This document shows positions 1 through 38,900 of a stretch of DNA of 45,663 nt, piece by piece. The translations under genes were made by a program, and so were the position numbers. The stretch is taken from positions 1 to 45,663 of the IMG/VR virus record IMGVR_UViG_3300048597_000147. The stretch is one strand, 5' to 3'. This stretch comes from a virus. Each line of letters starts with the position of its first letter. Positions within the stretch are counted from its first letter, which is position 1. A model generated the notes under the pieces. It saw only the letters and a list, made by a program, of their open reading frames with translations. It had not been told where the DNA came from and did not search any database.

Positions 1-127
1 GATACCCCGTTCCTACCCCAAAAAATCTAGTGGGGGTAGGTGTGTTGTGGTGTTCTGTGATGTGGTGTTATAGGGTGTCGTGTCGTGTTCTGCGCTCCGC
101 TGCGTTGCACTGCGCTGCGCTGTGCAT
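1..127. repeat. Terminal overlap copy 1 (identical to 45537-45663)
   Basis: Read directly: the first 127 nt (gataccccgttcc...ctgcgctgtgcat) recur exactly as the last 127 nt. Unique length is 45,536 bp. This implies a circular, circularly permuted or terminally redundant genome. Confidence 0.95.
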
Positions 128-5656: not shown

Positions 5657-5900
5657 CGCTATCCTCCGCCGCCGCCTCCGCCGCCGCCGCCTCCGCCGCC
5701 TCCCATTTGCGCTGCCTCTCGTTGGACATTGCGGCATGAACAGCGGAAGTAACTGCGCCCCCGATGTTTTCCGCAGTGTTGCGAACCATATCGAGCGACC
5801 CCCTTGCCTGGATGTTGGCCTCGTCCACCGTAGATATGGCGTAGTGCTCATTCCGATACCAAATAGTGATGTTTACGCTGACTTCGTAGGCGTTCTTCAT
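5640..5900 (-). CDS. Hypothetical protein (86 aa) with an Ala/Glu-rich tail
   Basis: Plausible globular N-terminus (MKNAYEVSVNITIWYRNEHYAISTV). ATGA overlap with the upstream gene. Confidence 0.6.
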   Translation of the reverse strand: MKNAYEVSVNITIWYRNEHYAISTVDEANIQARGSLDMVRNTAENIGGAVTSAVHAAMSNERQRKWEAAEAAAAEAAAEDSDGPGA

Positions 5901-6544: not shown

Positions 6545-6695
6545 CCTCCTCCCTCCTCTCCTCTACCTGCTGTGCCTGTAACCTATCGTATTCTTCCAAC
6601 AGTCGGGCCAGTGCATCCCGGTCCACCACGGCCAGGGGGCCGGGCCGCTTCACCCCCTGGCGCAAACTCCACAACTGCCGTGCAGTCGGCGGCAT
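6522..6695 (-). CDS. Hypothetical small protein (57 aa)
   Basis: ATG 6695 is preceded by GGAGGG at 5-nt spacing. Contains LARLLEEYDRLQAQQVEE. Confidence 0.45.
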   Translation of the reverse strand: MPPTARQLWSLRQGVKRPGPLAVVDRDALARLLEEYDRLQAQQVEERREEVGPSDNH

Positions 6696-6696
6696 C

Positions 6697-6804
6697 CTAC
6701 CCTCCGAGGAGGACGTTGGTTTGGCCGAACAGCACGGCCATCCCAAACGCCGCCAACAACAGGATAGCAACCCCCTTCCACAAACCCTCGTTCCGCATCT
6801 GCAT
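6697..6804 (-). CDS. Hypothetical single-TM micro-protein (about 33-35 aa)
   Basis: AGGAGG lies directly upstream. Sequence MQMRNEGLWKGVAILLLAAFGMAVLFGQ. The start could be 6804 or 6798. Confidence 0.35.
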   Translation of the reverse strand: MQMRNEGLWKGVAILLLAAFGMAVLFGQTNVLLGG

Positions 6805-6808
6805 CCTC

Positions 6809-7075
6809 CTATGCTTGCGAACTGTAATAAGTCTTGGTGACCCCTCGCATATCTTCCAGGTTGTCCAGTAGTGACTTGGCGCAGAGGGGGCAACCAACCA
6901 CCCTCTCATGCTGCACGTTGTAGTGTTGGGGGACCAGTTGCCCCGTGCTGGTGCGGTACACAATCCGCACCGTTGCCCCGCAGCAGCGGGTAGTCGCCTC
7001 GTCCACCCGGCTGGCATAGTTGTAGGTGTCCCCCCCCACAACCTCACTGACAGCCACGCTCCCCACGACCGGCAT
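6809..7075 (-). CDS. Hypothetical Cys-containing protein (88 aa)
   Basis: Contains RCCG...GCPLC. Preferred over the overlapping alternative frames because its composition is non-repetitive. Confidence 0.55.
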   Translation of the reverse strand: MPVVGSVAVSEVVGGDTYNYASRVDEATTRCCGATVRIVYRTSTGQLVPQHYNVQHERVVGCPLCAKSLLDNLEDMRGVTKTYYSSQA

Positions 7076-7077
7076 AC

Positions 7078-7350
7078 CTACCCCCTCAGCAGAGCCTCAA
7101 GTTGCTCCAAGGCCGGGAGCTTGCGGGCAAGCCCTTCGACAGCGTGCCGGGCGGCCGTGCGCTCCATGAGGTCATAGGTGTCCCAAAAGATTGCCAACTC
7201 CCGAGAGGTCGGGGTTGCGGTTTCGTCCACCTGGCCCGCAGCCCCCTCCGTAACGGGCTGCGTCCACTGGCGCATCTTGACTACAGCGGCTGCCGCCTCG
7301 CTTGCTTTGACCTCGCCCAACCCGGGCACCGTTCGAGAAATATCCAGCAT
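7078..7350 (-). CDS. Hypothetical protein (90 aa)
   Basis: The start is moved to ATG 7350 (MLDISRTVPGLGEV). The upstream part of the track ORF is Arg/Pro-rich and overlaps a hairpin. Confidence 0.5.
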   Translation of the reverse strand: MLDISRTVPGLGEVKASEAAAAVVKMRQWTQPVTEGAAGQVDETATPTSRELAIFWDTYDLMERTAARHAVEGLARKLPALEQLEALLRG

Positions 7351-7377
7351 CTTCTTCGTTCTCCTGGTGATAGTGTG

Positions 7378-7399
7378 GGGGAGGGTTGACCCTCCCCCT
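7378..7399 (-). other. Intercistronic GC hairpin GGGGGAGGG-ttga-CCCTCCCCC
   Basis: Read directly. There is no U-tract, so it may be an attenuator or RNA-stability element. Confidence 0.4.
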
Positions 7400-7406
7400 G
7401 ATTGAC

Positions 7407-7724
7407 CTAGCTGCCGGCGCCGTCGAGGTCGAGGTTCACGCCTGCAATGAGTTCGCTTGCGTCCTCGTCGGCCAGGGCCTGGCGTGCCATCCGTTCGGCA
7501 AACTGGCGCAGCGGGTCGGCCGGCTTCTGGCGCTGGTACTCCTGCTTGCACATGCCGAGGGCCATCCCCGAGGCGATGCGGCCGACGCTCTTGATGTTGT
7601 AATCGATGGTCGCAAACGACCCGGCAATCTCGTTGTCCTCGACGGCCACGACCTCATCACTCCCCAGGTCGATGAGACTGACCACAATCCGCACTGCGTA
7701 CCGCTTACTGTCAATGTTCCCCAC
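7407..7724 (-). CDS. Hypothetical protein (105 aa)
   Basis: Clean ORF with balanced composition. No motif recognised. Confidence 0.65.
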   Translation of the reverse strand: MGNIDSKRYAVRIVVSLIDLGSDEVVAVEDNEIAGSFATIDYNIKSVGRIASGMALGMCKQEYQRQKPADPLRQFAERMARQALADEDASELIAGVNLDLDGAGS

Positions 7725-7758
7725 GATGCTTCTCCTTTACTGATAGATGTTGAATCGA

Positions 7759-9180
7759 CTAGACCTCGGCGTACTCCCCGTATTCTTCTTCTTCCTCCTC
7801 CTCCTCCTCCTCAATGTGATGGATGTTGTACCAGGACTCGAACACCTGGTCCCGGTTCTTCTTGGTATAACCACCATGCCCCCGGACGTGGGATGCAAAC
7901 GCCACGCTTGCCCGGTCCATGTCTGCATACATATCCGTGTTCTCAGCAGCCCACAGAATTGCCTGCTGAGGGCCGGTCCACTGCTGCCAGGGCAGGGAGG
8001 GGGGAGCAACGTCGCCGGTTGTCTCCTCTCGCTCCTCCTCCTCCTGCACGCTGGCCGTGGCCGCTACATCCTGACCACCCCCCTTAGTTTTCTTTGACTT
8101 CGGCGCCTCATGCTTATTGACGTAGGTGCGCCACTTGGCTAGGACCTCGCTCGGTTCCACACCTACCAGAAAGGCCAAATGCTTTTGCCATGCGCTGGCA
8201 ACGTGACTATCCCCGGCAAACTTGCCCGACGCTGCCGCCCACTGCACCGCAGCGGAGTAGTCCGTTACCGTCATCCAGTCGCCCCACCCATCGGGGTTAT
8301 CGCTCAACCCGGCCGCAACTGCCGGCGCCGACCGGACGGACGGGCGGGACGGCTCACTAGCCCACACGTTCCCATCCTCATCCATCGTGTACGCTTCCTG
8401 CGTACCTGGAAGCTGCCCCTCCTCCTCGCCGTCCGGCTTGCTCCGGTCCTCCAACTCAGCGGCGATGTGCTGATTTGCCAGCGCAAGGCGGGCCTGCGCG
8501 ATGCGTTCCACCGACTGGTAACGGGACTCGAAATCATCCAGCGGAATCATCGGGAACTCGGCCATTAGCGCCGCCCGAGTCGCCCGGCGAATCGCTACAT
8601 CCTGCCGGCTGCGCTGCGCAGGAACCGTGTCCGACTGCCAGAACTTGCGGCCCGTCTTTTTGTCGTTAACCCACTCGTCTTTTTCGTTGGCGTTCTTGCG
8701 CCAGAAAGCGTAGTGCCAGCGGGGTTTGTACGGGATGCCAAGCTCTTTCATTTCCCGGGCCACGTCGAAGCGGAACACACGGGCACGGGCGCCCTTATCC
8801 TCTGGCGTGTACGGAACATCCGGGTCAGTGTGGGCCGCTACCTCCTCGGGGGTCAGGTCCTCTACGTCCACCGTGTAGCGGAACTTGCCCACGAACGCAT
8901 GACGGTCGGCCATCTTCTTCCACATCTCAAGGGAAGGCTCGGCGCTGTACCCACGGCCACGCTTGATTACGAACATATCCACGCCAGGGACCAGACCATA
9001 CTGGTAGGTCAACTGCGCAGCCTTGAGACAGGCGGGCCGGGCCAGGCGGGTGTCAGCATCGGGGATGTTGAAGTACATCCCGATGCGGTTCGCCAGTAAC
9101 TCCAGTGCTTCCTTCTGGCCGAACTGCGCCAGGGCCGTAGTCGCCGGCGCCGCTACAACAATCTCTTGCTTCTCGTTCAC
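7759..9180 (-). CDS. Putative RecT/Red-beta-like single-strand annealing protein with a long C-terminal extension and poly-Glu tail
   Basis: AAQLTYQYGLVPGVDMFVI and QDVAIRRATRAALMAEFP resemble the conserved RecT blocks (..QLGL.PG....yli.. and ..A.rR...yLP). The C-terminus is EEEEEEEEEEYGEYAEV. Confidence 0.5.
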   Translation of the reverse strand: MNEKQEIVVAAPATTALAQFGQKEALELLANRIGMYFNIPDADTRLARPACLKAAQLTYQYGLVPGVDMFVIKRGRGYSAEPSLEMWKKMADRHAFVGKFRYTVDVEDLTPEEVAAHTDPDVPYTPEDKGARARVFRFDVAREMKELGIPYKPRWHYAFWRKNANEKDEWVNDKKTGRKFWQSDTVPAQRSRQDVAIRRATRAALMAEFPMIPLDDFESRYQSVERIAQARLALANQHIAAELEDRSKPDGEEEGQLPGTQEAYTMDEDGNVWASEPSRPSVRSAPAVAAGLSDNPDGWGDWMTVTDYSAAVQWAAASGKFAGDSHVASAWQKHLAFLVGVEPSEVLAKWRTYVNKHEAPKSKKTKGGGQDVAATASVQEEEEREETTGDVAPPSLPWQQWTGPQQAILWAAENTDMYADMDRASVAFASHVRGHGGYTKKNRDQVFESWYNIHHIEEEEEEEEEEYGEYAEV

Positions 9181-17218: not shown

Positions 17219-18001
17219 ATGGCAAAGAGAGACGGTTTTTGGCGATGGGATAGGGGGAAGCTTGCCGAGGAGAAGGGTAGGCAGGCGTACATAAACGGAA
17301 AACCCCAATCGGCCAATCCATACAAGCGCACCTTCTGGGGATTCGGTGGCTACTGGGACTTAGGTTGGATGTTAGCGGAAGCAGATGCAAAGTGCGAGGA
17401 AAATATGAACACACAGAATGCACAGAATGCAGAGATGCTACAGCAGATTAACCAGTTCCTTGCCGCAATATCGCCACCCGACCCGGACGGCATATATTCA
17501 GTGGCAAAGGTGGACAGTAGTGTCGATCCAGTCGAACTGTACCGACAAGGGTTAGCTATGGGAAGCGGGCATGTTTGGTATGTCGGCACTGAGAAAGTGG
17601 CGACTGCCATTACTGGCAACGGCCCACGAGCGAAGGCAAATGCTGAGTTCTATGCCGCCGCCCCGGTTTTTGTTCGGTGGCTACTCGATCAACTTTCCGA
17701 GGCTACTACTCGCGCAGAAGCAGCAGAGGGACAGTTAGCCAAACTGCAACTGGATTACATTGATACCGCCAACGGCGCAGTAATGGAACGTCAGCGTGCG
17801 GAGAAGGCAGAGAAGGAGCGCGACGCATTGTTGTGGGAGAGTGACGACGGCATCTGTGGTCATTGTGGCGAGGGTGCAGTGCGAGTGAGCATCGACACAG
17901 AAGGATACCCATACGAGGTGTTTGCTGTGCGCTACTGTCCTGTTTGCCACAACGCATGGGTACGAGAAGAACCGGTAAATCCTGAGGCGTCGCAGATGTA
18001 A
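17219..18001 (+). CDS. Composite protein: Rmf/CrpP-like N-terminus, Ea22-like middle, C-terminal zinc ribbon
   Basis: GRQAYINGKPQSANPYKRTFWGFGGYWDLGWMLAEA resembles the Rmf pattern (G.QA...G....NPY......W..GW..A). ANAEFYAAAPVFVRWLLDQL resembles the Ead/Ea22-type motif. Also contains CGHCG...CPVCH. Confidence 0.6.
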   Translation: MAKRDGFWRWDRGKLAEEKGRQAYINGKPQSANPYKRTFWGFGGYWDLGWMLAEADAKCEENMNTQNAQNAEMLQQINQFLAAISPPDPDGIYSVAKVDSSVDPVELYRQGLAMGSGHVWYVGTEKVATAITGNGPRAKANAEFYAAAPVFVRWLLDQLSEATTRAEAAEGQLAKLQLDYIDTANGAVMERQRAEKAEKERDALLWESDDGICGHCGEGAVRVSIDTEGYPYEVFAVRYCPVCHNAWVREEPVNPEASQM

Positions 18002-18619: not shown

Positions 18620-18650
18620 TCCCGTAGATAAACGGCATTACCACTAGAGA

Positions 18651-18683
18651 CCCACGGTTGTCCACCGTGGGTTTACTTTTTCT
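18651..18683 (+). terminator. Intrinsic terminator
   Basis: CCCACGGT-tgtcc-ACCGTGGG followed by TTTACTTTTTCT. Confidence 0.8.
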
Positions 18684-18747
18684 CCAGACAGTTCACTTAT
18701 AGACAACAATCCCGACTTGAGTTAACATAAGGGTGCCAGTTTGCAGA

Positions 18748-18764
18748 AGTTTGTGCTGCCTATA
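18748..18764 (+). repeat. 17-nt motif AGTTTGTGCTGCCTATA, copy 1
   Basis: Exact repeat of 28935-28951. Both copies are preceded by GCCAGTT. This copy ends 11 nt before ATG 18776. Confidence 0.8.
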
Positions 18765-18775
18765 CGTTCGGCAGT

Positions 18776-19567
18776 ATGCAGCGACACCTAATTATTGCGC
18801 CTAAGTCTGACCTGGAGTTCGCCCATAGTGAACTCCAGCGCATCGTCAATGCAGGCTTTACGACCTGCCGCCTACTCATTGACAACGTTACCCTCCGGGC
18901 CGTGGTCGATGCGTTAGACGACCCCTACGATGTGGTGTGGTTCATTGCCCATGGCGGCAATGAGGGCATCCAGTTGGAAGATGGGGTACTTAGCCCCTCG
19001 CTTCTCATCCAACTGCTGCGACCGCATCCCCCACTACTCCTAGTCCTCAACACATGCTCATCCCTTGGGATGGGTATGCGGGCGCACCGTGCATTGCGTT
19101 GTACGGTTATCTCCACCCTCATCGACATACCGGACGTGTTGGCCTTTGTGACGGCCGCAAGCCTGGCGCAAGCCCTGGCCCGTGGTCTGTCCATCCCCGA
19201 AGCGTATGACCTTTCCCGCCCCGACGAAAATCGGGAGTATGTCATGCTTAATGGGGCAATCTCCATGAACAGCAAATCCAAGCACGACGACACTAATCGC
19301 CTGCTGGCCCGGCTGTACATGCAGATTGACGAATTGCAAGAGCAAGTAGAGGAGGTCAAGGCCAGCGTGCAGCGGCCGACGTTCTCCAAACTTGTCTATG
19401 CGCTGGCCTGGGTATTCCTCCTCGGCCCCTCTCTGTTCTTCCTCAAACTAAGGACCCTAGCGGCGGTACTGGATTCGACACAGTTCCTATGGACTGTCCT
19501 CGCCTGGACCGTGGCTGCGGTTCTGTTTGGCTATGCTCAAGGTTTATTCAAGGAGAAGTCTCAGTGA
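18776..19567 (+). CDS. Membrane-anchored minimal CHAT/caspase-fold domain protein
   Basis: VVWFIAHGGNEGIQLEDGVLSPSLL (His59) and PLLLVLNTCSSLG (Cys94) match the CHAT His/Cys dyad context, followed by DIPDVLAFVTAASLAQALARGLSIPEAY. Then come a coiled coil and two C-terminal TM helices. No Shine-Dalgarno is visible. Confidence 0.6.
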   Translation: MQRHLIIAPKSDLEFAHSELQRIVNAGFTTCRLLIDNVTLRAVVDALDDPYDVVWFIAHGGNEGIQLEDGVLSPSLLIQLLRPHPPLLLVLNTCSSLGMGMRAHRALRCTVISTLIDIPDVLAFVTAASLAQALARGLSIPEAYDLSRPDENREYVMLNGAISMNSKSKHDDTNRLLARLYMQIDELQEQVEEVKASVQRPTFSKLVYALAWVFLLGPSLFFLKLRTLAAVLDSTQFLWTVLAWTVAAVLFGYAQGLFKEKSQ

Positions 19568-19713
19568 AAGACTACATTGTAGGGGGATGGAAATCCCTAA
19601 GCGAACGTGGCCGGGCCGTGGTTGCCGTGGTCCTGCTGCTGATTCTCGGCGCCCTGTTGGGCTATACCATGTTCCTGGGTTATGACTGGTCATGGTTGAA
19701 GGACCTGCTCTAG
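19564..19713 (+). CDS. 49-aa single-TM protein (holin-like size and topology)
   Basis: AAGGAG lies 8 nt before GTG 19564. GTGA overlap with the CHAT gene. Contains AVVAVVLLLILGALLGYTMFLGY. Confidence 0.55.
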   Translation: MKDYIVGGWKSLSERGRAVVAVVLLLILGALLGYTMFLGYDWSWLKDLL

Positions 19714-22700
19714 TGCGGCGGGCGATTATCCCCCTGCTGGCCGTCCTCCTGGTTCTGACCCTCGTCGGTACTGTACTGGCGCAGTCGGCAGAGCAAGGGT
19801 GGACGGTCATCGAATCGGGGGCAGAGTTTCAAGATGGGTTCGTGGCCCTGGAAGATGTGACGGTGGACGGGCCGCTAACGCTGGCCGGTGCCATGCAGTT
19901 CGCCTCCCTTGCCACGCTGCCCGATAAACCGCAAGCGGTCACGGCAGGCGGCATAATCACGGTGACCGGCAGCCTGGTCACGCTCGATGCGCAGGAGGTT
20001 GTCACGGCGGGCGGCCTGGGGGGTGGGTCGCCTGGCGACATTGCGATTCTCACCAACAGCGGCGCCTATACCGTCACCGTCCTTGGCACTGCGTTGGGCC
20101 CGTTCGACAGTGTTGCCATGGTCTACGGGGGAACCGAGTGGCTGCGGGTCGCTACCATCACAACCGCATCACAGCCCCCGACCCCTACCCCGATTGCTAC
20201 CAACACGCCGACGCAGACGCCTACGAACACGCCGACGCAGACGCCTACGCAGACGCCTACGTTCGTGCCGACGCCTACCAACACCAGCACGCCGACGCCG
20301 GTCCCACCGGCAGCGCAGACTGGCACGTACACCACGAACGTACCCATGCTCCAGGTGTACAGCGGTGACCCCATGCTGGACTACAACAACCGCACCCTCA
20401 TTTGGGGCGGCACCATCCAGTCAACGGGATTCCCCATGCTGCGCCTGGCCGGAGCATACGACGGTTTCCGCATGACCTGGCAGTTTGCCGACAACCAGGT
20501 TGGCACAGGGGACCAGGCCACGCTGCAAATCGGTAGTGTCTACTCCACGACTGCGCCGGCGACGGGAGACCCCAACGGGTGGGAGGTCGGGTGGCGCTGT
20601 GGTATTGACGGTGGATGCCGGGGATGGCGGGCCGAAAGACGTACTACAGACTGGACGTTCTTAGGGGCAGGCAAGACCTACACCAACACGCTAGGCACGA
20701 CCTACCCCTACACTGTCACATATCGGGACTTCGACAACGGCAGCTTCACCGTCCAGCACATCATCACGGGTACGCTGCGCTTCGGCCTGCAAGACTACAG
20801 TGCTAAGAGCGTTGTCGGGCAAGTGATTACGACAACTGTCCTTTCCGCCGACGCCAGCGTTGGGGGTGGCCCCGACTGCGGCAGCGACGACTATCCCGAC
20901 TTCTTCCCCACCTGGGGGAGCCGGAACGAGGACGGGCCCACCAACTACAGTGCGCGGATCCATCTTGGAACGCACTATCAGGCCAACATTGCGCAGACGC
21001 AGGGCGACATTGCAGACTTCCCCTGCTACTCCAAGTATGCCGGGCAGTTCCCCCTTCCCAACATCGGAAGCAGTGTAGTCAACAGCGCAACCGTCACCGT
21101 CTACCAGTTCGGCAACCCCGGCTATGGCACCGGGTACGAGGACGACGGGACGAAAGAGACAGTTGTTGAAGTGGGCGAAATCTCCCCCAACTGGACTGAA
21201 CTTGGGATTACTTGGGATAACTCTCCCCGACCACGGGAGAACATCTCACGCACCCGGTTCTATCCACTGCCCGGGACGTGCAGCCCGACCCCCTACTGGT
21301 ACTGCGTGCCGCCCATCCCCTACGAGTTGGACATCACGGAGATTGTGAAGCGTGCCTATGCCAACGGGCAGACACACGCTTCTTTCCTGGCGTACACGGC
21401 AGCCGGGCAGTACCATTCCGGTAAGTTCATCTGGACCCGTGAAGCAAGCGGTAATCCTTCCTGGCCTCCTGTGGTGCGTATTGCCTACGCAGCGGCAGGG
21501 GCACCCACGCCCACGCCCACGACGCCCCCAACGGCCACGCCCACGGGTGTGCCTGGCGTGCTGGATGACTTCAACCGTACAGTCCTAGGGACCAACTGGA
21601 ACGGGCCCGGGGATGCCACGCTTGGCTATACCCTGAACAGCAACTCCCTGGTCATGGGCGGCAATAAGGCGCTGCTGTGGCAGCCGGCGACCTTCGGGGC
21701 AAATCAGCGGGTCACCGTAACCCTTGCCTACATGGACCCGGCAGCTACACATCTTGGCCTGGCCCTCAAAGCCAACAGCACCTACACCCGTATGCTCGAA
21801 GCGGAGTACGTGGTAGGTAGTGGCGTGAGGTTCTGGACCCTTGACCCCGTGTGGAACGCCAGTGCATTTGTCTCTATGACTCTTGCTGCTGGCGATGTGT
21901 GGAGCGTCGAGGCGCTGGACAATGGCGACCTGCGCACCTACAAGAACGGGGCCTACATCGGCGGCCGAACCATCACGTTCTCCGGTAACGCATCGGGCGG
22001 GATGGCCGGGGTCTACGCCTGGAACAGCGGCGCCAGCCGGGTAGACAACTTCAACGCCACCGACGTAGGGGCGCCGAATCCTGGCGCCACGGCCACGCCA
22101 ACACCCACCAACACGCCGACGCCTACGGGGGCGCCGCCAACCAACACGCCTACGGCCACGCCTACCATGACGCCACTGCCTGGCACGGCGACCCCGACGC
22201 CTACCCCTGGCCCCGGCAACACCTACTACATATCGACAACGGGGGACGACCGCAACAATGGCACGTCCCTTGCGCAAGCCTGGGGGACGTTCAACCGGGC
22301 ATGGGAAACGCTCATGCCGGGCGACACGCTGCTGATTGCCGATGGGACCTATAACCAGTCTATCGCCCCGAACCGGCGCCATGGTCTGCCCAACGCCCGC
22401 ATCACAATCAAGGCAATCAATGACGGGCAGGTAGTCATTGACTGCAACAGTGCCTTCGAGTGTACGCCTATTCAGCTAGGGGACAACCCCGGCCCTGGCG
22501 GGCCATACGGCGATTACTACCTAGTCGAAGGCATTGTAGCCCGTGAGGGGTGGCTGTACAACGTCCTGGTCAAGAGCCAGCACAACATCCTGCGCCGCAT
22601 TAGTGCATACGATACGTCCACCGACCGCAACTCACAGAGCATCCTCATCTGGAACGACTACAACGTGCTGGAAGATTCAATCTCTGCAGGGACCGGCCGC

Positions 22701-23576
22701 TACATGATTGACGTGTACCAGGCAGAGAACGTGATTCTGCGTAGGAATGTCGCCATGTGGCGCAGTTGGGACGGTAAGAACTTCTGTGGTGTGTCATGGC
22801 CCAACGGAAACAACCTAGGACTCTACAACTCAAGCACGACCCTAGTAGAGAACAACATTGCCTATGGGCGGGCGCTGACCGGCATGTTCGCACAGGCCAA
22901 CGCCGACGCTGCGGTGGCAGTGGGAAATCGCTTCTTCGGCAATATCAGTGCCCTCATCGGCAGGGACTATGACAATACCCCATGGTTCTACGGAAGTGGG
23001 CAACTGCAACCGGAGGAACGTCCTGGACCCACTGTCAACCCCTACGGGGACCCTTGCCCGACCTCAATCACCAGATGGTCATGGGGCAACCAACAAGACG
23101 CCTACTCCCTATGGGGCCAGGGAGAAATCAGGGATAACGTGTTCAGGGATAACATCGGCCTAGACTCACAGGGCAGCGGCATGAACGCCACCGACCCATC
23201 CGGCACCCCCGGGAACAAGAGCAACAACGTCATGGACCGCTTTACCCTGCGCAGCACCGGGACCAACATCCCGGAATGGCAGAGCCGCAACTACGGGCCG
23301 AACCTACAGATTGCTATGGGGGGGGTATCCGCACCGACCAACAGCCTAATTCCCCTCTCTCCCTACCCGCTACAGGATGGGGCGAGACTGACAAACCGCT
23401 ACATCGATGGGGTCTACACCAGTACCCCCCTCAAGCCCTGGCCGATGGAACAGCGGGCGATGGCGGAAATGGGAGTATCCATTAACGCCATTATCGACAC
23501 GGCTGTAAACCGTGCAGCCGGCGGCAGCATGGCCTGGCCCATCCCCACGGGTGGCACACAACTAGGAGCTCCGTAA
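19692..23576 (+). CDS. 1,294-aa signal-peptide multidomain protein (Pro/Thr linkers; carbohydrate-binding-like, ConA/LamG-like and right-handed beta-helix domains)
   Basis: RRAIIPLLAVLLVLTLVGTVLAQ/S is a Sec-type leader. There are three PT-rich linkers. NWTELGITWDNSPRP...PPVVRIAY resembles DNRLRE-type modules. NTYYISTTGDDRNNGTSLAQAWGTFNRAWETLMPGDTLLIADGTYNQ is a pectate-lyase-fold N-cap. The start may be GTG 19713 (TAGTG overlap). Confidence 0.85.
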   Translation: MVEGPALVRRAIIPLLAVLLVLTLVGTVLAQSAEQGWTVIESGAEFQDGFVALEDVTVDGPLTLAGAMQFASLATLPDKPQAVTAGGIITVTGSLVTLDAQEVVTAGGLGGGSPGDIAILTNSGAYTVTVLGTALGPFDSVAMVYGGTEWLRVATITTASQPPTPTPIATNTPTQTPTNTPTQTPTQTPTFVPTPTNTSTPTPVPPAAQTGTYTTNVPMLQVYSGDPMLDYNNRTLIWGGTIQSTGFPMLRLAGAYDGFRMTWQFADNQVGTGDQATLQIGSVYSTTAPATGDPNGWEVGWRCGIDGGCRGWRAERRTTDWTFLGAGKTYTNTLGTTYPYTVTYRDFDNGSFTVQHIITGTLRFGLQDYSAKSVVGQVITTTVLSADASVGGGPDCGSDDYPDFFPTWGSRNEDGPTNYSARIHLGTHYQANIAQTQGDIADFPCYSKYAGQFPLPNIGSSVVNSATVTVYQFGNPGYGTGYEDDGTKETVVEVGEISPNWTELGITWDNSPRPRENISRTRFYPLPGTCSPTPYWYCVPPIPYELDITEIVKRAYANGQTHASFLAYTAAGQYHSGKFIWTREASGNPSWPPVVRIAYAAAGAPTPTPTTPPTATPTGVPGVLDDFNRTVLGTNWNGPGDATLGYTLNSNSLVMGGNKALLWQPATFGANQRVTVTLAYMDPAATHLGLALKANSTYTRMLEAEYVVGSGVRFWTLDPVWNASAFVSMTLAAGDVWSVEALDNGDLRTYKNGAYIGGRTITFSGNASGGMAGVYAWNSGASRVDNFNATDVGAPNPGATATPTPTNTPTPTGAPPTNTPTATPTMTPLPGTATPTPTPGPGNTYYISTTGDDRNNGTSLAQAWGTFNRAWETLMPGDTLLIADGTYNQSIAPNRRHGLPNARITIKAINDGQVVIDCNSAFECTPIQLGDNPGPGGPYGDYYLVEGIVAREGWLYNVLVKSQHNILRRISAYDTSTDRNSQSILIWNDYNVLEDSISAGTGRYMIDVYQAENVILRRNVAMWRSWDGKNFCGVSWPNGNNLGLYNSSTTLVENNIAYGRALTGMFAQANADAAVAVGNRFFGNISALIGRDYDNTPWFYGSGQLQPEERPGPTVNPYGDPCPTSITRWSWGNQQDAYSLWGQGEIRDNVFRDNIGLDSQGSGMNATDPSGTPGNKSNNVMDRFTLRSTGTNIPEWQSRNYGPNLQIAMGGVSAPTNSLIPLSPYPLQDGARLTNRYIDGVYTSTPLKPWPMEQRAMAEMGVSINAIIDTAVNRAAGGSMAWPIPTGGTQLGAP

Positions 23577-24241
23577 TGGGCGCACGACTGGCAGGTAACG
23601 CAGCGAATCATCTATCGGCAACTCTGTCCCCCACAGAGTTGACCCTATCCTTTTGGATGAAGCACCACACGGCCGGAGGATACCGCACCATCGTGGACCT
23701 CGCCGGTGCAGGGAACATCATCCTGTACGCCGACAGCAACAACAATCACTTCACACTGTACAAGGGAGGGCCGGAAACACTCGGCCCCACCCTTACCCTT
23801 GACCAGTGGTACTACGTCGCCGTCACGCAGACCGTGGGCGACGTGATGACCGTCTACCTTGACGCCGTGCAGCAAATCCAGGTGACGGCCGTCACGACGG
23901 CCGTGGGCGCCCTGCGCTTCGGCAGTAACACGGGATGGGGCGAACCGGGTGACATTACCATCGCCTATGCCCGTGCATGGTCCTCGGTCCTCTCCGCTGC
24001 GCAGCTTGCAGCGGAGAAGGACAGCACCACGCCCGTAGTCACGGCGGGACTGCTGGCCGACTGGCGCCTGGTGGACGGGAACATGCTGGCCGACAGTAGC
24101 GGCGCCAACAACCCGCTAATCCTGACAGGCACCGTCCCATGGGCTGCTGACCCAACGCTTAGTGGGGGAGGCGGGGGAGGCGGCAGCACAAGCCGTAAAG
24201 CAATCGTAGCCCCTCGGGGCAGTCGCTTATACCGGAGCTAG
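23576..24241 (+). CDS. LamG/concanavalin-A-like lectin-fold protein with a poly-Gly C-terminus
   Basis: LTLSFWMKHH...TIVDLAGAGNIILYADSNNNHFTLYKGG...WYYVAVTQT...TVYLDAV fits the LamG_3 pattern. TAATG overlap. Confidence 0.6.
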   Translation: MGARLAGNAANHLSATLSPTELTLSFWMKHHTAGGYRTIVDLAGAGNIILYADSNNNHFTLYKGGPETLGPTLTLDQWYYVAVTQTVGDVMTVYLDAVQQIQVTAVTTAVGALRFGSNTGWGEPGDITIAYARAWSSVLSAAQLAAEKDSTTPVVTAGLLADWRLVDGNMLADSSGANNPLILTGTVPWAADPTLSGGGGGGGSTSRKAIVAPRGSRLYRS

Positions 24242-24242
24242 G

Positions 24243-25097
24243 ATGAACTTCTCGATTGAACGCCAGCACCCGAGCGTGCTGGCAGTTCGCCATGCAATCT
24301 CGGCCGGATGGCAGCAGGAACATCTACTACTTGCTGACGTGCATTACGACTCGACGCACTGTAATCGCATCCTGCTAAAGAAGCTGCTGGACCAGGCAAA
24401 GGACAAGGGCGCCGGCATCTTCATTTGCGGGGACTGGAACGATGCAATGCAGGGCCGTGATGACCGCAGAGCGTCCAAGGATGACCTGCGAGGGGAGTAC
24501 AAGGTAGGTCATTACCTCGATGCGGTTGTAGACGATTCTACGGCCTTCTTGGAGCCATATCGTGACAATCTTCTTGGCATCGGGGACGGGAACCATGAGA
24601 CCTCAATCTTGCGCCACCATGAAACCAACGTACTCGGGCGCATCTGTCACGCTCTCAAGGTGCCCTATATGGGTTATGCGGGGTTCGTGCGCTGGATGTT
24701 CGCCTATGAGAAGGATGGTAAGCGTAGTGGTATGTCCTCGCTTCCAATGTGGTTCCACCATGGGGCAGGGGGCGGCGGCGAGGTAACGAAGGGAACCGCA
24801 CGGGCGCAGCGGGAAATGGGTCCAGTACCTGACGCCCGTATCTACATCGGGGGACACATTCATCGTTCCTGGCGCATTGACGATGCACGTATCAAGCTCA
24901 CCCAGGCGGGCAAGGTCACCACGGAGCGCACGCTGCACCTGTGCATCCCCACACTCAAAGACGAGTTCGACCTACGGGGAGGGTATCACGTCGAAAAGGG
25001 CCGCTGGCCCCGAGTGATAGGAGGGTACTGGTTGCGCTTCTGGCACGACAACATGAACGATGCACGGGTTGAGTTTGACGCAAGCCTGGCCCTATGA
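24243..25097 (+). CDS. Calcineurin-like metallophosphoesterase
   Basis: The ordered motifs ADVHYD, CGDWND, GDGNHE, HHG and GGHIH match D-x-H / GD-x-x-D / GNHE / H / GH-x-H. Confidence 0.85.
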   Translation: MNFSIERQHPSVLAVRHAISAGWQQEHLLLADVHYDSTHCNRILLKKLLDQAKDKGAGIFICGDWNDAMQGRDDRRASKDDLRGEYKVGHYLDAVVDDSTAFLEPYRDNLLGIGDGNHETSILRHHETNVLGRICHALKVPYMGYAGFVRWMFAYEKDGKRSGMSSLPMWFHHGAGGGGEVTKGTARAQREMGPVPDARIYIGGHIHRSWRIDDARIKLTQAGKVTTERTLHLCIPTLKDEFDLRGGYHVEKGRWPRVIGGYWLRFWHDNMNDARVEFDASLAL

Positions 25098-25318
25098 CGA
25101 TGGACCCCCGAGACAAAGACAGCTACATCGCAGACATTATCAGTGGATACTATCGCCTACTAGCGGCGATTGTCGATTTGGCCGAACATGACGCCAAGCT
25201 GGAACCCGAGAAGTACAAGAACCCGGACCAGCGGGCCGACGCCAGGAGAGCCAAGGAAGGCGCCGTCTGGTTCCTGGCCGACGTCGAAGAATACAGGCGC
25301 ACCCTCAGCGCAAGCTGA
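25094..25318 (+). CDS. Hypothetical helical protein (74 aa)
   Basis: ATGA overlap with the phosphoesterase gene. Its 3' end overlaps the convergent minus-strand gene by 14 nt. Confidence 0.55.
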   Translation: MTMDPRDKDSYIADIISGYYRLLAAIVDLAEHDAKLEPEKYKNPDQRADARRAKEGAVWFLADVEEYRRTLSAS

Positions 25319-25847
25319 TTCCCGCAAGGGCATACTGGAACACTTGCGGCCGGCGTTCCAGTATGTCCCGTTCCCACAAGTTGATAACCTTCTCGATGCG
25401 GATTCCTCCCACGGTCTGACCCGTCAGACGTAGGGCCGCTTCCGCATCCCGCAATCCCTTCGCCTTGGAACGGCCGTGCCAGTATTCGCCCTGAATCTGC
25501 CACGCCATCCCCCGGCCGCCGCCGAGGTCTACCACGAAGTCAGGGATGAGACCCCCGGCGCTGCCACGGCCCCCGGCGACTTGCGCCTGGTAGATGTGGC
25601 GCCAGCCGCCACGGTGCAGCCATTCCAGCGTGATAAGTTCGGGGACTGTCCCCGTTGGGTACTGTTCCTGCAACTGCAGAACCCGCTTTGCCAACTTCTC
25701 GTCACCTACTCTGCGGGTGAGTTCGGTCAGTTCAGTGTCAACCGGCTGCACGTCAAAGGCATCGGGGAAACCCTTGAAGATGGGAATGTCTCGCTTCCGC
25801 TTGCCCTTCTTGAACGGGTTCGAGAATCCCCGGGGCTTCTTGAACAC
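25305..25847 (-). CDS. Second Vsr/DUF559-like PD-(D/E)XK nuclease-fold protein, last gene of the virion operon
   Basis: ELITLEWL...LIPDFVVDLGGGRGMAWQIQGEYWHGRS...INLWERDI matches the E...D...(E/Q)xK-like core and the Vsr-like tail. TAGTG overlap with the upstream gene. Confidence 0.5.
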   Translation of the reverse strand: MFKKPRGFSNPFKKGKRKRDIPIFKGFPDAFDVQPVDTELTELTRRVGDEKLAKRVLQLQEQYPTGTVPELITLEWLHRGGWRHIYQAQVAGGRGSAGGLIPDFVVDLGGGRGMAWQIQGEYWHGRSKAKGLRDAEAALRLTGQTVGGIRIEKVINLWERDILERRPQVFQYALAGISLR

Positions 25848-32948: not shown

Positions 32949-35900
32949 TCACTTCCATTTCGTCCGGGCCGGTTTGAGTCGGTCGCCAGCGTAGAACCAG
33001 TCAGGCAATTCCCCCACCCGCTGGATGGGGCGCCACTCCTTGATGTATTGTGGGAGAACCTCTAAGTTCCTGTCCATCCCCTGCGGGTCAACGTAGGGGG
33101 TCCGGGGTTGGAATCCACCACCGCCACCGCCATATCCCCCACCACCACCGCCACCACCCCATCCGTTGCGGGTCGGTCCACCGCCCCCACGGAACGCCGA
33201 GGCGGGCAATAGTCCACTTCCGGCTGCACGCTGTTGCTGCGGCAGCAGTCCATACCACCAGTCGAGCCATTCCTTTAATCCCTCCTGGTCACGAATCGCC
33301 CGACGTTCTTCACCCGTCGCCGTGCGGTATCGCTCCACCTTATCCCAAATGTCCCGGCCGAACATGCGTTCGGCTTCCGCCCAATCCGTCCCATAGTTGC
33401 GTTCTACGCTGGTGCGGTTCGGGTCATAGGGGCGAGGTCGCCCGTCCACCCACGCATCCACCATCCACGCCTTGGGGTTGGCATCCAAGTAGGCGCTGCG
33501 CCGTTCCTGGTCCCCGGGGTTGTCGGTCCACTTCGGGGTTCTGGCCCACGCCAGCACAGCGTCAGCCCCATAGCGTCCACTGAGGAACTTGAAGCCTTCC
33601 GGTTCAAATGCCGCCAGGTTGTACGCATCGACTTCCGGGTATTGCTCCTTGAAGCGTGCCCGGGCATCACCCTTCGGCAAGTCGAGGTACTGTTCCCACA
33701 GGGACAGCGCACCATCCCCGTAAGCGTTTGCCACTTCGTAGCGTCTTGCGCCCCAATTTGCATCCCCTTGCTTCTCGTAGCTTTCCCAGGCGATGCGGTT
33801 CTTCTCACGCTGCTGCTTCTCTAAGTCGGTGTAGTTGCGCTCCTGGCGTTCCTTCCACATCGACGCCGCTTCTTGCTCAGAGAATCCGAGGGCCACCAGA
33901 CCGGCAACAACGCTCTCATCACGCTTTCGGTAATAAGCATCTGTCTCCTCCCGTGATGCGCCTTCACCCGGGCGCCCTGGCATATCGTAGGCAGCGTCAA
34001 ATACTGCATCCGCATCGGCCATCCGCTTCTCATCCGGGTTCATGCCCCCGTCATAGGTAAACCCATTCCCGGGCCCGTTGCTGCTAGGAATCGGGTACTT
34101 CTCACTGAGGGCGTTCGCCCCGTCGTAGGCCCCGCTAATCTGTGGCTGCCACTTGTCCATCACGCCCCGGCGAATCTTCGTGAGTTCACCAGACTTGATG
34201 TTCGGGTTCGCCAGAATCGCAGCATCAACGGCAGCATCCGCTTCCGCCTTTGCCTGCGCACGCAGGTCCTCGCCCTGGTCATAGCCTGCGCTAATCTGTG
34301 CGCTGGCGCCTGGAGGTCTCCCCTCGCCGCCAGGGATGAGAACACTGGTCCCCCACCCTACCGGCAACTCGGGATTGCTTTCCAGTACGGAATCCCGAGC
34401 CGCCTTGCTTCCGCCCGGGTTCGCCGGCCCATAGCCAAACTCCCGATACTGCTGCGCTGCGGCCCGGGCTTCCTTCTCCCCTTCGGGGTAATACTGGTTC
34501 GTGAGACCCGTCAACCAGCCGCCCAACTCACGGCCAAACCGTTCGACGCCAGCCCCTGCTACGTTCTGTTCGTAGGCAGCCTTGGCCGCCTCCAGATTGC
34601 CCGGAGGAATGAGCGTGCCGGGGTCCACACCTTCTTGGATGTTGTCGGCGTACTGCATCGCATACTGCGCCGTCGCCTGGTCCAGATTGCCCTGCGCCGT
34701 GTTGTTGCGGATAGTGCGGCCCACGAAGTACGGGTCAAACTCTGTTCCGAGAGAGAACATCCCCCCCGTCTGCATCCCCGCCTGGCCCGCTGCTTGCAGA
34801 CCGTAGGCGCCGATGCGGGCCAGCGGGAAGTAGTCGCCTATCTGCTGCGCCTCTGACCACTGCTGGAAGCGAGGTTTTTCCCCGTCCTTGACCGGCATGT
34901 TTTCATCCATCCACGCCCACAGAGGCCCCTGATACCATGGGAATGTTTTCTCCCCGAGGTACTGGAGGGTCGAGTTGAGAACATTCTGCTGCACGTCCTC
35001 TGATTCAATCTCCTCAGTGAACGCCGAGGGCATGTACATGGAAAATGGCAGCGTCCAAACCAGCGGGTTCTGCAACCGGTCAGGCATCCATGGAGTATCG
35101 ATAACCTCTTTCAGCGGGTTCGGAACCGTGCCCTGTAACCGCTGCGGGCGCTCCACTACCTGGCCGTCCACGACGTCTGTGCGCTGGTTCTCGCCAGCGA
35201 TAGCCCGCTGTGTCTCCATCCAGAAGTCCAGCAGGGCCGGCTTTGCCATCACCCGCTGCATCCAGTTCCCGGCCGACCGGGTAAAGTAGTAGTGGAACGG
35301 CAGCACCAGGGCCAGGGCCGTGTCAATGTTGCGACGGTCGTTAAAGTCCATCATCGCAAACTCGCCCATCTTGCGCCCGTGGTCGCTGGCCGCACGCATC
35401 ACGTTATCCCACGCAGGTAGGAGCCGCTTGTTCACAATGTCCAGAACCTGCAACTGCTGTGCCGGAGTAAGTTTGTTCGGCTGCCCCGCCAGGATTGAGG
35501 CGAGGTTCGCCCGGAGATATTCTTCCAACTTGTCCACGCTTTGCAGTTGGCGCAGGGCAGCATCGCCCGCTTCCGGCATCGACTTACGTGCGAGCCGGGC
35601 CTGTTGAATCCCCTGCTTGATGGATGCGTAGGCATCCCCGTCAGGGGTGAAGGACAGACCCTCGCCCGTGGGGTGCCACATGCCCCGACGTGCCGGACGG
35701 GGAACCATCCAGTCAGGCCACGCCTTGACCGCACCGAGGCCCCCACGCATTTCAAACAGGGCATCCTGCCCGCCATTCTTCATACTGTCGATGGCAGATT
35801 GAAGCATCGCCAGTTTATCGGCGCCGCCTCCGGCGAACAGGGCATCCTGCCCGCCCATGACGTTCAGCGCATTGTCGGCATACCGGTTAAGTGCTGCGCT

Positions 35901-38900
35901 GATTGTCTTGCTTGTCCGAATGTTGGCGTCGAAGAACTGGACCAGTGCCTTTGTCGCCTCGTCCATTTCTCCGAATAGGCCGACCTGCTGCAATACCGTA
36001 GCAATGCTTTCGCCCTTGTTCCGCACGTCGAGCAGAGTCATAGCGGCATCGGCCAACTCCCGCCCGATAGCAAGGTCCGGGTTCTGCAGTTGAAGCTGCG
36101 CCAGTTTGCCGATGGTGCGTTCGATTGCGTTCCCGATGTTGGCTAGGTCGGGCTGCGGGTTCATCACATAATTGCGCAGGATGGCGTCAGCGTCTGAGAA
36201 CACGGTAGCAAACAACGCACCCCTAATCGTGTCTACGCCTTGCGTCGTCAGTTCCCCGTTCGGCCCAACAAACGCAGCACGCTCCGTGTCTGGAATCTTA
36301 GCCATGACACGACGCACGAACTCCCTGCTACTGGCAAGCGATAGGGCTTGCCGTAGGTTGTCAGTCGTCTTGGTGTCGAAGTTCACAAGGTCGCCGGCCG
36401 TCAGTTTGCGGGCGAGGGTCTTGGCCGATTCAGATGCGTTGTACGCCAACGTAGTACGCTGGTTTGCTTCTTGCGCAAATGCAACGGGGTCCACATCCTG
36501 CGGCAGCCTACGCACAAGTACGGGCTTATTCATGCCCTCCAAGCGGGCGGCGGGAATACCAAACTGTGCCGCCCGCTGTGATAGTGCGGTGCGGTAGTTC
36601 TGATAACTGGCGTCGTCGGCCAGGCGCATCGCCATTGTGCGCCCGTTCCCCGACAACACAACTCCGCTACTGTCCACAATAGGACTGCCACGGTCCAGGG
36701 CATTTGTTCCGGCCAGCAACTCGTCAGGGTCGAGCCGCTGCGCCATCGTGTTGACCTGCTGCAATCCCGCCGCTTGGCTGCGGTCACGGGGCTGTAGTGC
36801 AGCCGGGTAAGCTTGATTCACCCGGCCGCTTGCATCGTTGGATGCAACGAGAGCATCCAGTTCCACCACATCATATTGCGCCGTGTACTTGCGTGTGGGG
36901 TCGCTCCAGATTTCCACTGTGGCGCCAGCACTGGCGGGCGTGCTGGAAGTAGCACGCTTGTTGTAGTACGCCAGCACCTTCGGCAAATCGGCAGGAGACA
37001 AGTCCTCTAGCTTGCGGATGCGCCCCGTGAGACCGATTTCCTGGCGATGCTTGTTGATACTGTTGACAAGCCATTTGTCCGTCTGGTCCGTGCCGATGTT
37101 CGCACTTGACGCCACCTTGCGCACGTCGGTCAGCGTAGTTGTTGCCGTACTCGCAACAGGTGTAGGTTCCTCAAAATCGTTAACCTTTGGGGTTAACAAT
37201 TCTTCCGGTACATCATCCGCTGCGAGGGCGCCTTCTTCAAGCACATCATCCAAGACGGGGGTCAACAATTCTTCCGGCACGTCGTCCGTGACGAAGCCCG
37301 CCTCGCCCATGGCATCCGCCGTCGCCTGGGGGTCAGCCTTGGCAGCCTCGATGAACTCATCCGGCGAACGCAGCGGCGCCACGTCCTCCATTACATCATC
37401 AACAATCTCCTCGATGTTGCCTTTGACCAGGGCCTTGTAATCTTCAATAACCTGCTTGGGAACATAGACCCCATTCCCACCTGACACGGCCCGAGCCGCC
37501 TCAGTGTTGCCGACAATCTTCGGACCACGGGACGGCCCGCCCAACATTTCAGGAGTCGCCCCGCTTTTGGTTTGTGGGGCCTGCCCCCGTCCCTCCTCCA
37601 GAAGTCGCACCAAGTTCCCGTGATGGTCACGGGCAAGCCACGTCCCCGGGGTATCGTCGGTCGCCTCGCCTACCAGGTGGAAGTCACCAGCGAACGGGTC
37701 AGACCAGCGCAGTTTTGTCGGTGTCTGTTCGGCTAGGTAGTTCCAGACGACCGCACGCTTGGCAGCCGCAAACGCTTCTACGCTCTCATCTGCCAGCCGG
37801 TTCCACATCTGGTTGCGGTAGGTGAAGAACGCATCCCAATCTTTCGTGGCCTTTGCTTCTTCCGTCGCACGCCGCACCGCCCCGGCAGTCTGCGCACCCA
37901 TGGCGTCAGCCTGGCGCATGACGGCCGTAATAATGTCCAGGCTGTCAGTCGTCGGGAATCTGCGCAGCACGTCGAACAACTCAATGGCCGACCGGTCCAC
38001 AATGACACGGTTCGCTTCCCGAGCCGCCTTGTGCGCTGCATCGTCCCACGTTGCCCCCGGGTCGGCCATCCGTGCCGCCGCAATGTCCAACTCGTTGTAG
38101 TTGAAGTACCGGTCAATTACCTTGTTCCAGTCGTAACCGGTCGGCAGCGGTTCGCCGGCAGCATTGCGCAGCAGTGCCTGGCGAGATTCATCCATGACCC
38201 CTTGGAACTTGGCTGCGTACTCCTGCCACGCCTGCGCCGTCTGCTGATAGGCCCGCTGCCACACGGCCGTGCGTTCGGCCATGTTAGTTGTGCCGACGTT
38301 CGCCGCCTTAATCGCTTCCTGGTTAATCCCATCGACCAGCATCCGGGTTTCAACCTTGAGGTCATAGATGCGATTCCACACATCCATCCCGAACTGTAGG
38401 GCCTTGGGGTCCTGGGTCTGCACCAGGTCATCCATGAACGAACGATAGCCGTTGTCCTCAGTGCGGAGAATCTGTTTGGCAATCCGCCACGCCTCGGCGC
38501 CCGCCTCCTTCGCCCCGGTCCCACCCTTGCGGGCAAGCTGCGTGAGGTTCCGGGTCAGCAGGGCAGCGTCGTCAAGCTGAATATCCTTCGTGAACTCAGG
38601 GCGCCAGGATGGAGGTCCACCCGCTACAGCGTTCTCCGCATAGCGCCGGGCCCTCTCCAGAATCGGCTGCATCTTCGCCCACGCCTGCGCAGCCTGTTCC
38701 GGCCCATGGGTCTGAATAATGTCGTTGATTGCCCCACGCAATTCCAGGGGCATAAGCTCATCGGGGATGCGTGCAGCGGTCGGGTCCTTGACCACCATCC
38801 CCGCCACCGCCTCACGCATCTTGCCTGCAACGTTGGTCTTGTCCCCCGTCTTGGCGGCCTCAATCGCAACGTTCGCCAGCACCCGAGCTACATCGTCCTC

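Follow-up and report, generated by a model that had tools for sequence, protein, structure and literature searches.

A phage-encoded family of membrane-anchored minimal CHAT-domain proteins, with one member heading a mosaic six-gene operon

Main Finding

We analysed the IMG/VR virus record IMGVR_UViG_3300048597_000147 over its full length of 45,663 nucleotides (nt; hereafter, the window), with emphasis on a plus-strand operon of six open reading frames (ORF1–ORF6). An earlier note, made from the sequence alone, had described this operon as a cassette led by a membrane-anchored minimal CHAT (caspase-fold) protein. Our results confirm that ORF1 is a minimal protein of the CHAT/caspase fold, membrane-anchored and with both residues of the His/Cys dyad in place; protease activity is predicted from its sequence and model. 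Its relatives, so far found in viral and metagenome contigs, make up a large family with a new architecture of a known protease fold. As a tentative reading of its role, we favour a late holin-like membrane module to which the protease is an optional addition.

Current work on CHAT proteases concerns executioners of host immunity, such as Craspase, SAVED-CHAT, and the activators of gasdermins. The family described here places a caspase-fold CHAT core on the virus side, stripped down and tethered to the membrane, and this form is frequent among viral and metagenome contigs. With about 160 amino acids (aa), its CHAT domain is far shorter than the 289-position Pfam model and may serve structural and engineering work.

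Fold, Active Site and Membrane Anchor of ORF1

The CHAT identity of ORF1 was accepted because sequence, structure and conservation agree. When compared to the Pfam CHAT model (PF12770), ORF1 scored 20.9 bits (E 2.7e-4), below the cut-off of 24 bits, as fits a domain truncated relative to the model. Precomputed PF12770 matches existed for all full-length close homologues and were graded "weak" or "faint" in the relatives. A PDB search with a family profile built from 11 members yielded one significant match, the CHAT domain of SAVED-CHAT (8tl0, E 5e-7), with the HG and NxC motifs of the two proteins in register; weak profile matches to caspase-7 and caspase-3 gathered around the His motif. The AlphaFold2 (AF2) model of ORF1, computed on the family alignment, had a mean predicted local distance difference test (pLDDT) value of 82, and of about 90 over residues 1–150. 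The best Foldseek match of this model was again 8tl0 (E 9e-9, root-mean-square deviation of about 3 Å over about 190 columns), followed by Csx29 (8eey), separases, caspase-6/-8/-3, gingipains, and DdvA (8rw5). The Foldseek probability was 1.00 for SAVED-CHAT, Csx29, separase, caspase-6/-8/-3, and gingipains. Profile search and structure prediction with Foldseek, which the earlier note had proposed as checks, thus both recovered a caspase/CHAT fold.

Conservation was assessed on 195 distinct relatives aligned to the family model. His59 and Cys94 were each invariant (192/192), and Asn92 (191/192), Glu19 (188/192), and Asp120 (185/193) were nearly so. The two dyad residues and the DIPD motif lie where the earlier note had placed them, and the DIPD motif is conserved in the relatives. 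For membership in the superfamily, we consider that the fold and motif evidence overrides the sub-threshold Pfam score.

The AF2 model and hydropathy agree with the note that a coiled coil and two C-terminal transmembrane (TM) helices follow the CHAT domain (Table 1). ORF1 has no signal peptide, and this, together with the positive-inside rule, leads to the prediction that its CHAT domain lies on the cytoplasmic side; the same holds for relatives anchored at the N-terminus. No SAVED or TPR sensor or scaffold domain was found in ORF1 by the Pfam scan or in the AF2 model.

The closest known protein by both profile and structure, SAVED-CHAT of Haliangium ochraceum (type III-B CRISPR/CBASS, 8tl0), shares with ORF1 the aligned HG and NxC motifs and a following helix with a conserved A..L..AL motif. 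It is, however, a soluble host defence protein of about 480–500 aa with a cyclic-oligonucleotide sensor domain, whereas ORF1 has no sensor, combines its short CHAT core with a coiled coil and a membrane hairpin, and is encoded by phages in late operons. TPR-CHAT proteases, with 700–2,000 aa and TPR scaffolds, are likewise much larger than the minimal ORF1. Csx29/Craspase, separase, and DdvA resemble ORF1 in having the caspase/CHAT fold with a His-Cys dyad. DdvA, a TM anti-sigma factor, demonstrates that a CHAT domain can belong to a membrane protein (PMC11506125). Its CHAT domain is, however, periplasmic with an incomplete active site, whereas that of ORF1 is predicted to be cytoplasmic and retains a fully conserved dyad.

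Distribution of the Family

The size of the family was estimated by an exhaustive profile search of 1.84 billion cluster representatives (clusters at 50% identity), which yielded 235 matches at E ≤ 1e-30, 603 at E ≤ 1e-10, and 2,188 at E ≤ 1e-3. Among the 150 best matches, lengths ranged from 159 to 358 aa. According to a simple hydropathy test, 114 of 159 members possessed one to four C-terminal TM segments, and three possessed an N-terminal TM segment instead. The sole genome-resolved match was located on a contig of the Candidatus Caldilinea saccharophila metagenome-assembled genome (MAG); the remaining loci were IMG/VR viral contigs or metagenome contigs with phage genes. Searches of 50,697 GenBank phages at the DNA and protein levels (including tblastn) with ORF1, two relatives, and the family consensus returned nothing, even at E 0.1. 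BFVD contained two phage proteins sharing the overall fold and length of ORF1. In the literature we found no study of such a membrane-anchored CHAT phage protein, and a single passing annotation of a mycobacteriophage CHAT-domain protein.

Fused, Split and CHAT-Less Forms in Related Phages

Three sister phages (contigs L001, L035, and L036) share virion genes with the window phage at 40–78% identity and differ in the operon under study. The operon of L001 includes a CHAT-TM gene (41% identity to ORF1) and homologues of ORF2 and ORF6. It lacks ORF3–ORF5 and encodes a 387-aa protein with fibre-like tandem repeats, a PHROG-644 protein, and a "podophage GP4 fibre-tail adaptor" (Pfam Gp77). In L035 and L036, homologues of ORF2, ORF5 (76–77% identity), and ORF6 are present, and fibre-like repeat proteins replace ORF3 and ORF4. 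The ORF1 slot of these two phages is occupied by a protein of 127–139 aa consisting only of the cytoplasmic helix and two TM helices, with no CHAT domain. ORF2 was confirmed as a 49-aa protein with a single TM segment; its homologues directly follow the ORF1-slot gene in all three sister phages, and its family is confined to them and the window phage. The anchor module and ORF2 are the conserved pair of this slot in the lineage. Given the CHAT-less sister phages, the protease is optional in this lineage, and so an accessory add-on and not an essential killer.

BLAST detected no similarity between the C-terminus of ORF1 and the stand-alone proteins of L035 and L036. A hidden Markov model (HMM) of the C-terminal module, built from the post-CHAT part of 144 family members, matched both stand-alone proteins (E 1.5e-7 and 7.8e-7) among 4,621 ORFs. 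From these sequence matches, ORF1 looks like a CHAT domain fused to a membrane module that also exists alone. Possibly the module also exists split from the CHAT domain: the TM-less 161-aa CHAT protein P0006 is followed by a gene for a coiled-coil and TM protein, whose match to the module HMM was borderline (E 0.006). Fused, split, and CHAT-less versions in similar phages would form a natural series for finding out what a protease adds to a late membrane protein.

A further relative, L009, is a differently organised phage in which an ORF3 homologue with a Sec signal is present and a CHAT-TM gene closes the same operon; the N-terminus of its 619-aa fibre-like, LamG-like protein is weakly similar to ORF4. 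These comparisons bear on the proposal that ORF1–ORF6 form one dedicated system, in which ORF1 processes or activates a secreted ORF3 depolymerase with ORF4–ORF6 as accessories. The translational chaining of the six ORFs speaks for such a system, as does the L009 operon in which a CHAT-TM gene accompanies genes for an ORF3 homologue and an ORF4-like protein. However, no other genome holds all six genes: L001 has ORF1, ORF2, and ORF6 only, L035 and L036 have ORF2, ORF5, and ORF6, and L009 has counterparts of ORF1, ORF3, and ORF4 in a different order. The co-occurrence and the single functional module envisaged in the earlier note were thus not borne out. Processing of a secreted depolymerase, another of its suggestions, is also unlikely on topology: ORF3 has a cleavable Sec signal, and the CHAT domain is predicted to lie in the cytoplasm. 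ORF3 lies beside a CHAT gene in just one other of the approximately 30 loci surveyed (see below), and its beta-helix has cellular homologues of about 50% identity in Caldilineaceae/Anaerolineales MAGs. We regard a dedicated six-gene system as extremely improbable; ORF3–ORF6 are interchangeable, mosaic cargo for host interaction. The idea of a fixed multi-gene system was also rejected, as no single neighbour gene family co-occurs with the CHAT gene across the loci.

The proteins that replace ORF3 and ORF4 in the sister phages (L001, 10941–12104; L035, 3622–5019; L036, 3791–5020) have an N-terminal domain of 210 aa in common and diverge in the C-terminal half, which is made up of short peptides repeated in tandem (such as TIALPFVSETETVYQPAVA or GSLTPTGAL.K.T.KKVAG). 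The C-terminus of the 387-aa protein of L001 recurs in the 619-aa LamG-like protein of L009, as a shuffled fibre-like module.

Genomic Context of the CHAT Gene

The context of the CHAT gene was surveyed in about 30 non-redundant loci, which are related to each other, using crude gene calling and TM prediction. Locus scanning relied on a 10-sequence subgroup alignment, the 39-sequence alignment being too diverse. All the neighbourhoods consisted of phage genes, and none was a CRISPR/CBASS neighbourhood. In a Pfam scan of 131 pooled same-strand neighbours, virion and terminase families dominated. PDB sequence searches with two neighbours (278 aa in L041 and 340 aa in L047) gave nothing useful.

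The position of the CHAT gene depended on the type of phage. In HK97-type phages, it was located between the capsid and head-closure genes and the tail-completion genes. In other loci, it was found directly upstream of the terminase genes, or after the tail genes among small TM proteins. L017 and L020 both encode a CHAT-TM protein, a TM protein of about 170 aa, and a Peptidase_M23 (+SLT) protein of 684–754 aa, in that order; in L017, two 519-aa genes come next, read as terminase and portal from size alone. Glycan-active enzymes with Sec signals share the operon of the CHAT gene in the window, L009, and L025. In L025 this enzyme is a Glyco_hydro_cc protein (6447–7835, Sec-type signal MTVKTRLIPVAVGLLTLLVLLLAVSAAADA) encoded directly upstream of the CHAT-TM gene.

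Such positions could suggest a helper in assembly or maturation, a late tethered protease that acts at the membrane to trim a scaffold or a virion part (a fibre, an adaptor, or a head-tail joining protein). The location between head- and tail-completion genes in many siphovirus-type loci is compatible with this role, as is the location beside fibre and adaptor genes in L009 and in the lineage of the window phage. Yet L034 already possesses an S78 prohead protease, L035 and L036 have near-identical virion genes and no CHAT domain, and membrane tethering has no obvious use in tailed-phage assembly. We consider this explanation very unlikely.

The stop codon of the CHAT gene often overlaps or abuts the next gene, and in L034 the CHAT gene overlaps its neighbours by 4 nt on both sides. 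This arrangement is relevant to the exclusion or abortive-infection device suggested in the earlier note, in which a lysogen would keep the tethered protease at the inner side of its membrane to cleave proteins of an incoming phage or to trigger death upon superinfection. The window phage is probably temperate, as it encodes a large serine recombinase (Table 1). Membrane anchoring is found in many exclusion proteins, CHAT genes occupy moron-like positions inside structural modules, and a terminator and a promoter-like site lie upstream of ORF1 in the window. The evidence nevertheless leans against the device. The CHAT gene is embedded among late and virion genes, often translationally coupled to the latter with no intergenic space of its own (L034, L001), and ORF1 heads a six-gene operon that holds fibre-type genes in sister phages. 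PADLOC-DB 2.0, which includes caspase-like and gasdermin-type models, gave no match for ORF1–ORF6 and only noise (E > 0.01) for three relatives of ORF1. An exclusion role therefore appears distinctly unlikely.

A small (40–200 aa) same-strand TM protein was encoded within two genes of the CHAT gene in 18 of 30 loci, whereas positions elsewhere in these loci would predict 5.8; in 20,000 simulations the count never rose to 18. The count becomes 19 when ORF2 of the window, which the gene caller missed, is included. PHROG and Pfam scans assigned these small TM neighbours to no consistent family.

This enrichment is left unexplained if the tethered CHAT domain is a counter-defence protease that eliminates, late in infection, a host effector of immunity or suicide associated with the membrane (or the activator of such an effector), with the coiled coil and TM helices as a mere anchor. 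Known anti-defence genes are, moreover, usually early and located in accessory regions, whereas the CHAT gene is found in late and virion operons. Several observations do accord with counter-defence. The catalytic site is complete and shows strict conservation; some sister phages do without the protease, a pattern typical of accessory anti-defence genes; the position of the gene varies among phage types; and the nearest fold relatives, SAVED-CHAT and Csx29, act in immune signalling. On balance, we judge counter-defence to be rather unlikely.

Two further observations were made in these loci. In L028 (1–4114), L029 (1–4118), and L030 (2–2827), a CHAT-bearing HK97-type element adjoins opposite-strand BTAD genes, and in L028 and L029 also eCIS_core and AAA genes; these neighbours indicate that the element is a prophage in a 78-kb cellular contig. 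One CHAT-gene neighbour (set A6) matched the OrfB_IS605 and Cas12f1-like TNB domains, and is a TnpB-type transposon protein in a phage late region.

A Proposed Holin-Like Membrane Module with an Optional Protease

Class II holins have two TM segments, and lysis cassettes carry small coiled-coil or TM accessory proteins. The reading that we favour, as a possibility that falls short of probable, is that the C-terminal module of ORF1 and ORF2 together constitute a late membrane module of holin-like character, with an optional protease that faces the cytoplasm and is activated by oligomerisation. The membrane and coiled-coil parts of this holin-like pair would oligomerise late in infection and bring the tethered CHAT domains together, and these would be activated by proximity, as in SAVED-CHAT filaments and caspases. 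The active CHAT domain would then cleave a membrane-proximal cytoplasmic target and thereby assist or time lysis or egress. A precedent for the activation step is SAVED-CHAT, a protease switched on by oligomerisation (bioRxiv 10.1101/2023.06.23.546230).

In architecture, the C-terminal module resembles class II holins as they are commonly known: a helix, a TM hairpin, and a short charged tail (KEKSQ in ORF1). The stand-alone form in sister phages and the translationally coupled small TM protein ORF2 are also holin-like traits. A likeness to lysis cassettes is seen in several loci where the module heads a late operon, upstream of the terminase or of a large M23/SLT hydrolase. Unlike class II holins, however, the module of ORF1 has no significant similarity to PHROG or Pfam holins, and no recognised endolysin adjoins it in the window. 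ORF1 as a whole, with 263 aa, also includes a large cytoplasmic domain. We know of no holin with a protease domain, and a literature search found no report of one.

A number of points weigh against the favoured reading. The only holin homology detected for ORF1 was to PHROG 1296 "holin" (E 2e-3) and involved the coiled coil alone, and PHROG and Pfam searches with 28 C-terminal modules pointed to no common family. Roughly one in four of the 159 relatives had no predicted TM segment. In many HK97-type phages, the CHAT gene is located between head and tail genes, and lysis genes are not usually found at the head-tail junction, where accessory insertions are more typical. Classical endolysin and holin families were absent among the 131 neighbours, except for M23/SLT in two loci. 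The window phage may have an ordinary lysis cassette elsewhere in its genome; no endolysin or holin family was found among the 28 window proteins scanned with Pfam, which amount to about half of the proteins of the window. The loci behind the context statistics are phylogenetically related, and their gene calling and TM prediction crude. Finally, we infer the timing of ORF1 expression, its topology, its protease activity, and its substrate.

Among the three roles put forward in the earlier note, an envelope-degradation or release system comes closest to the genomic context, as a role of ORF1 and ORF2 and not of all six genes. In a more specific version, ORF1 would be a holin-scaffolded executioner caspase: a minimal CHAT domain on a holin-like module, activated by oligomerisation, that opens or kills the cell by proteolysis. 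Its target may be an envelope-synthesis, division, or membrane-integrity factor, in phages of Chloroflexota-type or other uncultured hosts. We find this version quite doubtful; if true, it would represent a proteolytic route of lysis or egress, distinct from the holin-endolysin pathway and from single-gene lysis proteins.

Downstream Genes ORF3–ORF6

The length of 1,294 aa given for ORF3 in the earlier note holds when translation is counted from ATG 19692. The TAGTG-coupled GTG at 19713, preceded by a GAAGGA Shine–Dalgarno (SD) motif, gives a protein of 1,287 aa that begins with a textbook signal peptide (MRRAII...VLA|QS). The Sec-type signal, three Pro/Thr linkers, a domain of the carbohydrate-binding type, and a right-handed beta-helix were recovered as the note had described them. 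The binding domain (residues 452–588) matched CBM96 with 27.3 bits (cut-off 26) and DNRLRE with 40.6 bits (cut-off 34). A ConA/LamG-like middle domain, also claimed, received no support from Pfam or a PDB sequence search, and the latter gave nothing useful for the N-terminal domain either.

The C-terminal beta-helix of ORF3 (approximately residues 845–1269) had Pfam matches below threshold. Its 140 homologues (33–52% identity) matched Beta_helix (PF13229), Chondroitinase_B (PF14592), and PF22842. They include proteins from Caldilineaceae/Anaerolineales MAGs with 45–52% identity over the whole domain; some are encoded on contigs of up to 640 kb, and some have the same layout of CBM96 plus beta-helix. 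Secreted CBM96 and beta-helix proteins of these bacteria thus resemble ORF3 in their Pfam set (Beta_helix, PF22842, Chondroitinase_B, and in some CBM96). ORF3 differs from those cellular proteins in being borne by a phage within a phage operon and in having extra N-terminal and middle domains and the three linkers. Judged by its homologues, ORF3 is most simply read as a host-derived, exported carbohydrate-active protein. Together with the family match in the Candidatus Caldilinea saccharophila MAG, these cellular homologues point to a host among the Chloroflexota (Caldilineaceae/Anaerolineales).

The assignment of ORF4 as a LamG-fold protein was upheld by a Laminin_G_3 match of 47.9 bits (cut-off 27.6, E 2e-12). 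ORF5 is a calcineurin-type metallophosphoesterase, as proposed, with a complete set of five motifs (DxH 32–34, GDxxD 63–67, GNHE 116–119, HH 172–173, and GHxH 204–207), all invariant in three homologues. It matched PHROG 7339 (2e-13); its Pfam (Metallophos_2) and NCBIfam matches were below threshold, a PDB sequence search gave nothing useful, and a single-sequence AF2 model was discarded (pLDDT 39.9). ORF6 had no Pfam or PHROG family match and has homologues in L001, L035, and L036. Its 3′ end converges with, and overlaps by 14 nt, that of the last gene of the virion operon (25305–25847, minus strand). The 180-aa protein encoded by this gene has no Pfam match, is present in all sister phages at 57–58% identity, and contains by eye a PD-(D/E)xK-like motif (PDF...QGEYWH).

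Genome and Operon Layout

An exact direct repeat of 127 bp was found at both ends of the window (1–127 and 45537–45663). The repeat has the look of an overlap left by assembly, so the window most likely represents an entire phage genome of about 45.5 kb, assembled as a circle. A gene for an SU10-type major capsid protein was recognised from its homology to L001, an annotated sister contig. A search of the window for tRNA genes yielded none.

Table 1. Coordinates of the operon, its control signals, the parts of ORF1, and the recombinase gene in the window.
Feature	Positions	Strand	Remarks
Large serine recombinase, 494 aa	9593–11077	−	42% identity to L001 gene with Resolvase/Recombinase Pfam matches
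Intrinsic terminator closing the upstream early/middle operon	18648–18684	+	11-bp stem 18648–18674, 6 G-C pairs, then T-run
Weak sigma-70-like promoter match TAGACA-17-TAACAT, 9/12	18700–18728	+	Such matches not above chance in number
ORF1, 263 aa, minimal CHAT protease (activity predicted), coiled coil and TM hairpin	18776–19567	+	
CHAT/caspase-fold domain, ORF1 residues 1–160 (His59, Cys94, Asn92, Asp120)	18776–19255	+	
Coiled-coil helix 169–197 and TM helices 204–222 and 235–254 (ORF1 residues 169–254)	19280–19537	+	AF2 secondary structure, hydropathy
ORF2, 49 aa, one TM (hydropathy)	19564–19713	+	GTG start overlaps ORF1 stop; AAGGAG SD
ORF3, 1,294 aa from ATG 19692	19692–23576	+	
ORF4, 221 aa, LamG/ConA-like (Laminin_G_3)	23576–24241	+	
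ORF5, 284 aa, metallophosphoesterase	24243–25097	+	
ORF6, 74 aa, no TM, no family match	25094–25318	+	Last operon gene

All six ORFs were present on the plus strand at the coordinates reported in the earlier note. Each of the five claimed stop/start junctions was checked and found: GTGA (19564–19567), TAG/GTG (19711–19715), TAATG (23574–23578), TAG-g-ATG (24239–24245), and ATGA (25094–25097). SD-like motifs precede ORF2, ORF4, and ORF5. For ORF1, none was detected in the 21 nt upstream, in line with the note. A small hairpin abutting the start codon of ORF1 was dropped from consideration, its stability being that of shuffled sequence (z 0.08).

The strong intrinsic terminator reported upstream of the cassette was also found. 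As a class, terminator-like matches were not above chance in the region (five found versus 6.3 expected). The terminator upstream of the ORF1 slot recurs in place in L001 (9961–9984) and L036 (3111–3137), and its stem sequence is partly kept in sister phages (CCCAC.../...GTGGG). Its end in L001 is 16 nt from the start codon of the ORF1-slot gene, too close to fit a promoter in between, as would be expected if a late unit were controlled by read-through. L036 has a 10/12 promoter-like site at the same place after the terminator (3155–3184). This layout suggests control of the ORF1-slot operon by read-through or antitermination.

Other Features of the Window

Three more predicted proteins were recorded outside the operon. 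The 260-aa protein encoded at 17219–18001 (plus strand), shortly upstream of the operon, has a weak N-terminal similarity to ribosome modulation factor (RMF) and a C-terminal Cys-rich, zinc-ribbon-like motif, both below threshold. A single ORF of 2,690 aa (32949–41021, minus strand) is part of the virion operon, flanked by the capsid gene on one side and the portal-side genes on the other; a PDB sequence search gave no match for it, and it may encode a giant internal or ejection protein. The third protein (215 aa; 5897–6544, minus strand) combines three predicted N-terminal TM segments with a C-terminal helix-turn-helix (HTH_23, sigma-70 region 4-like), and looks like a membrane-tethered transcription regulator near the integrase.

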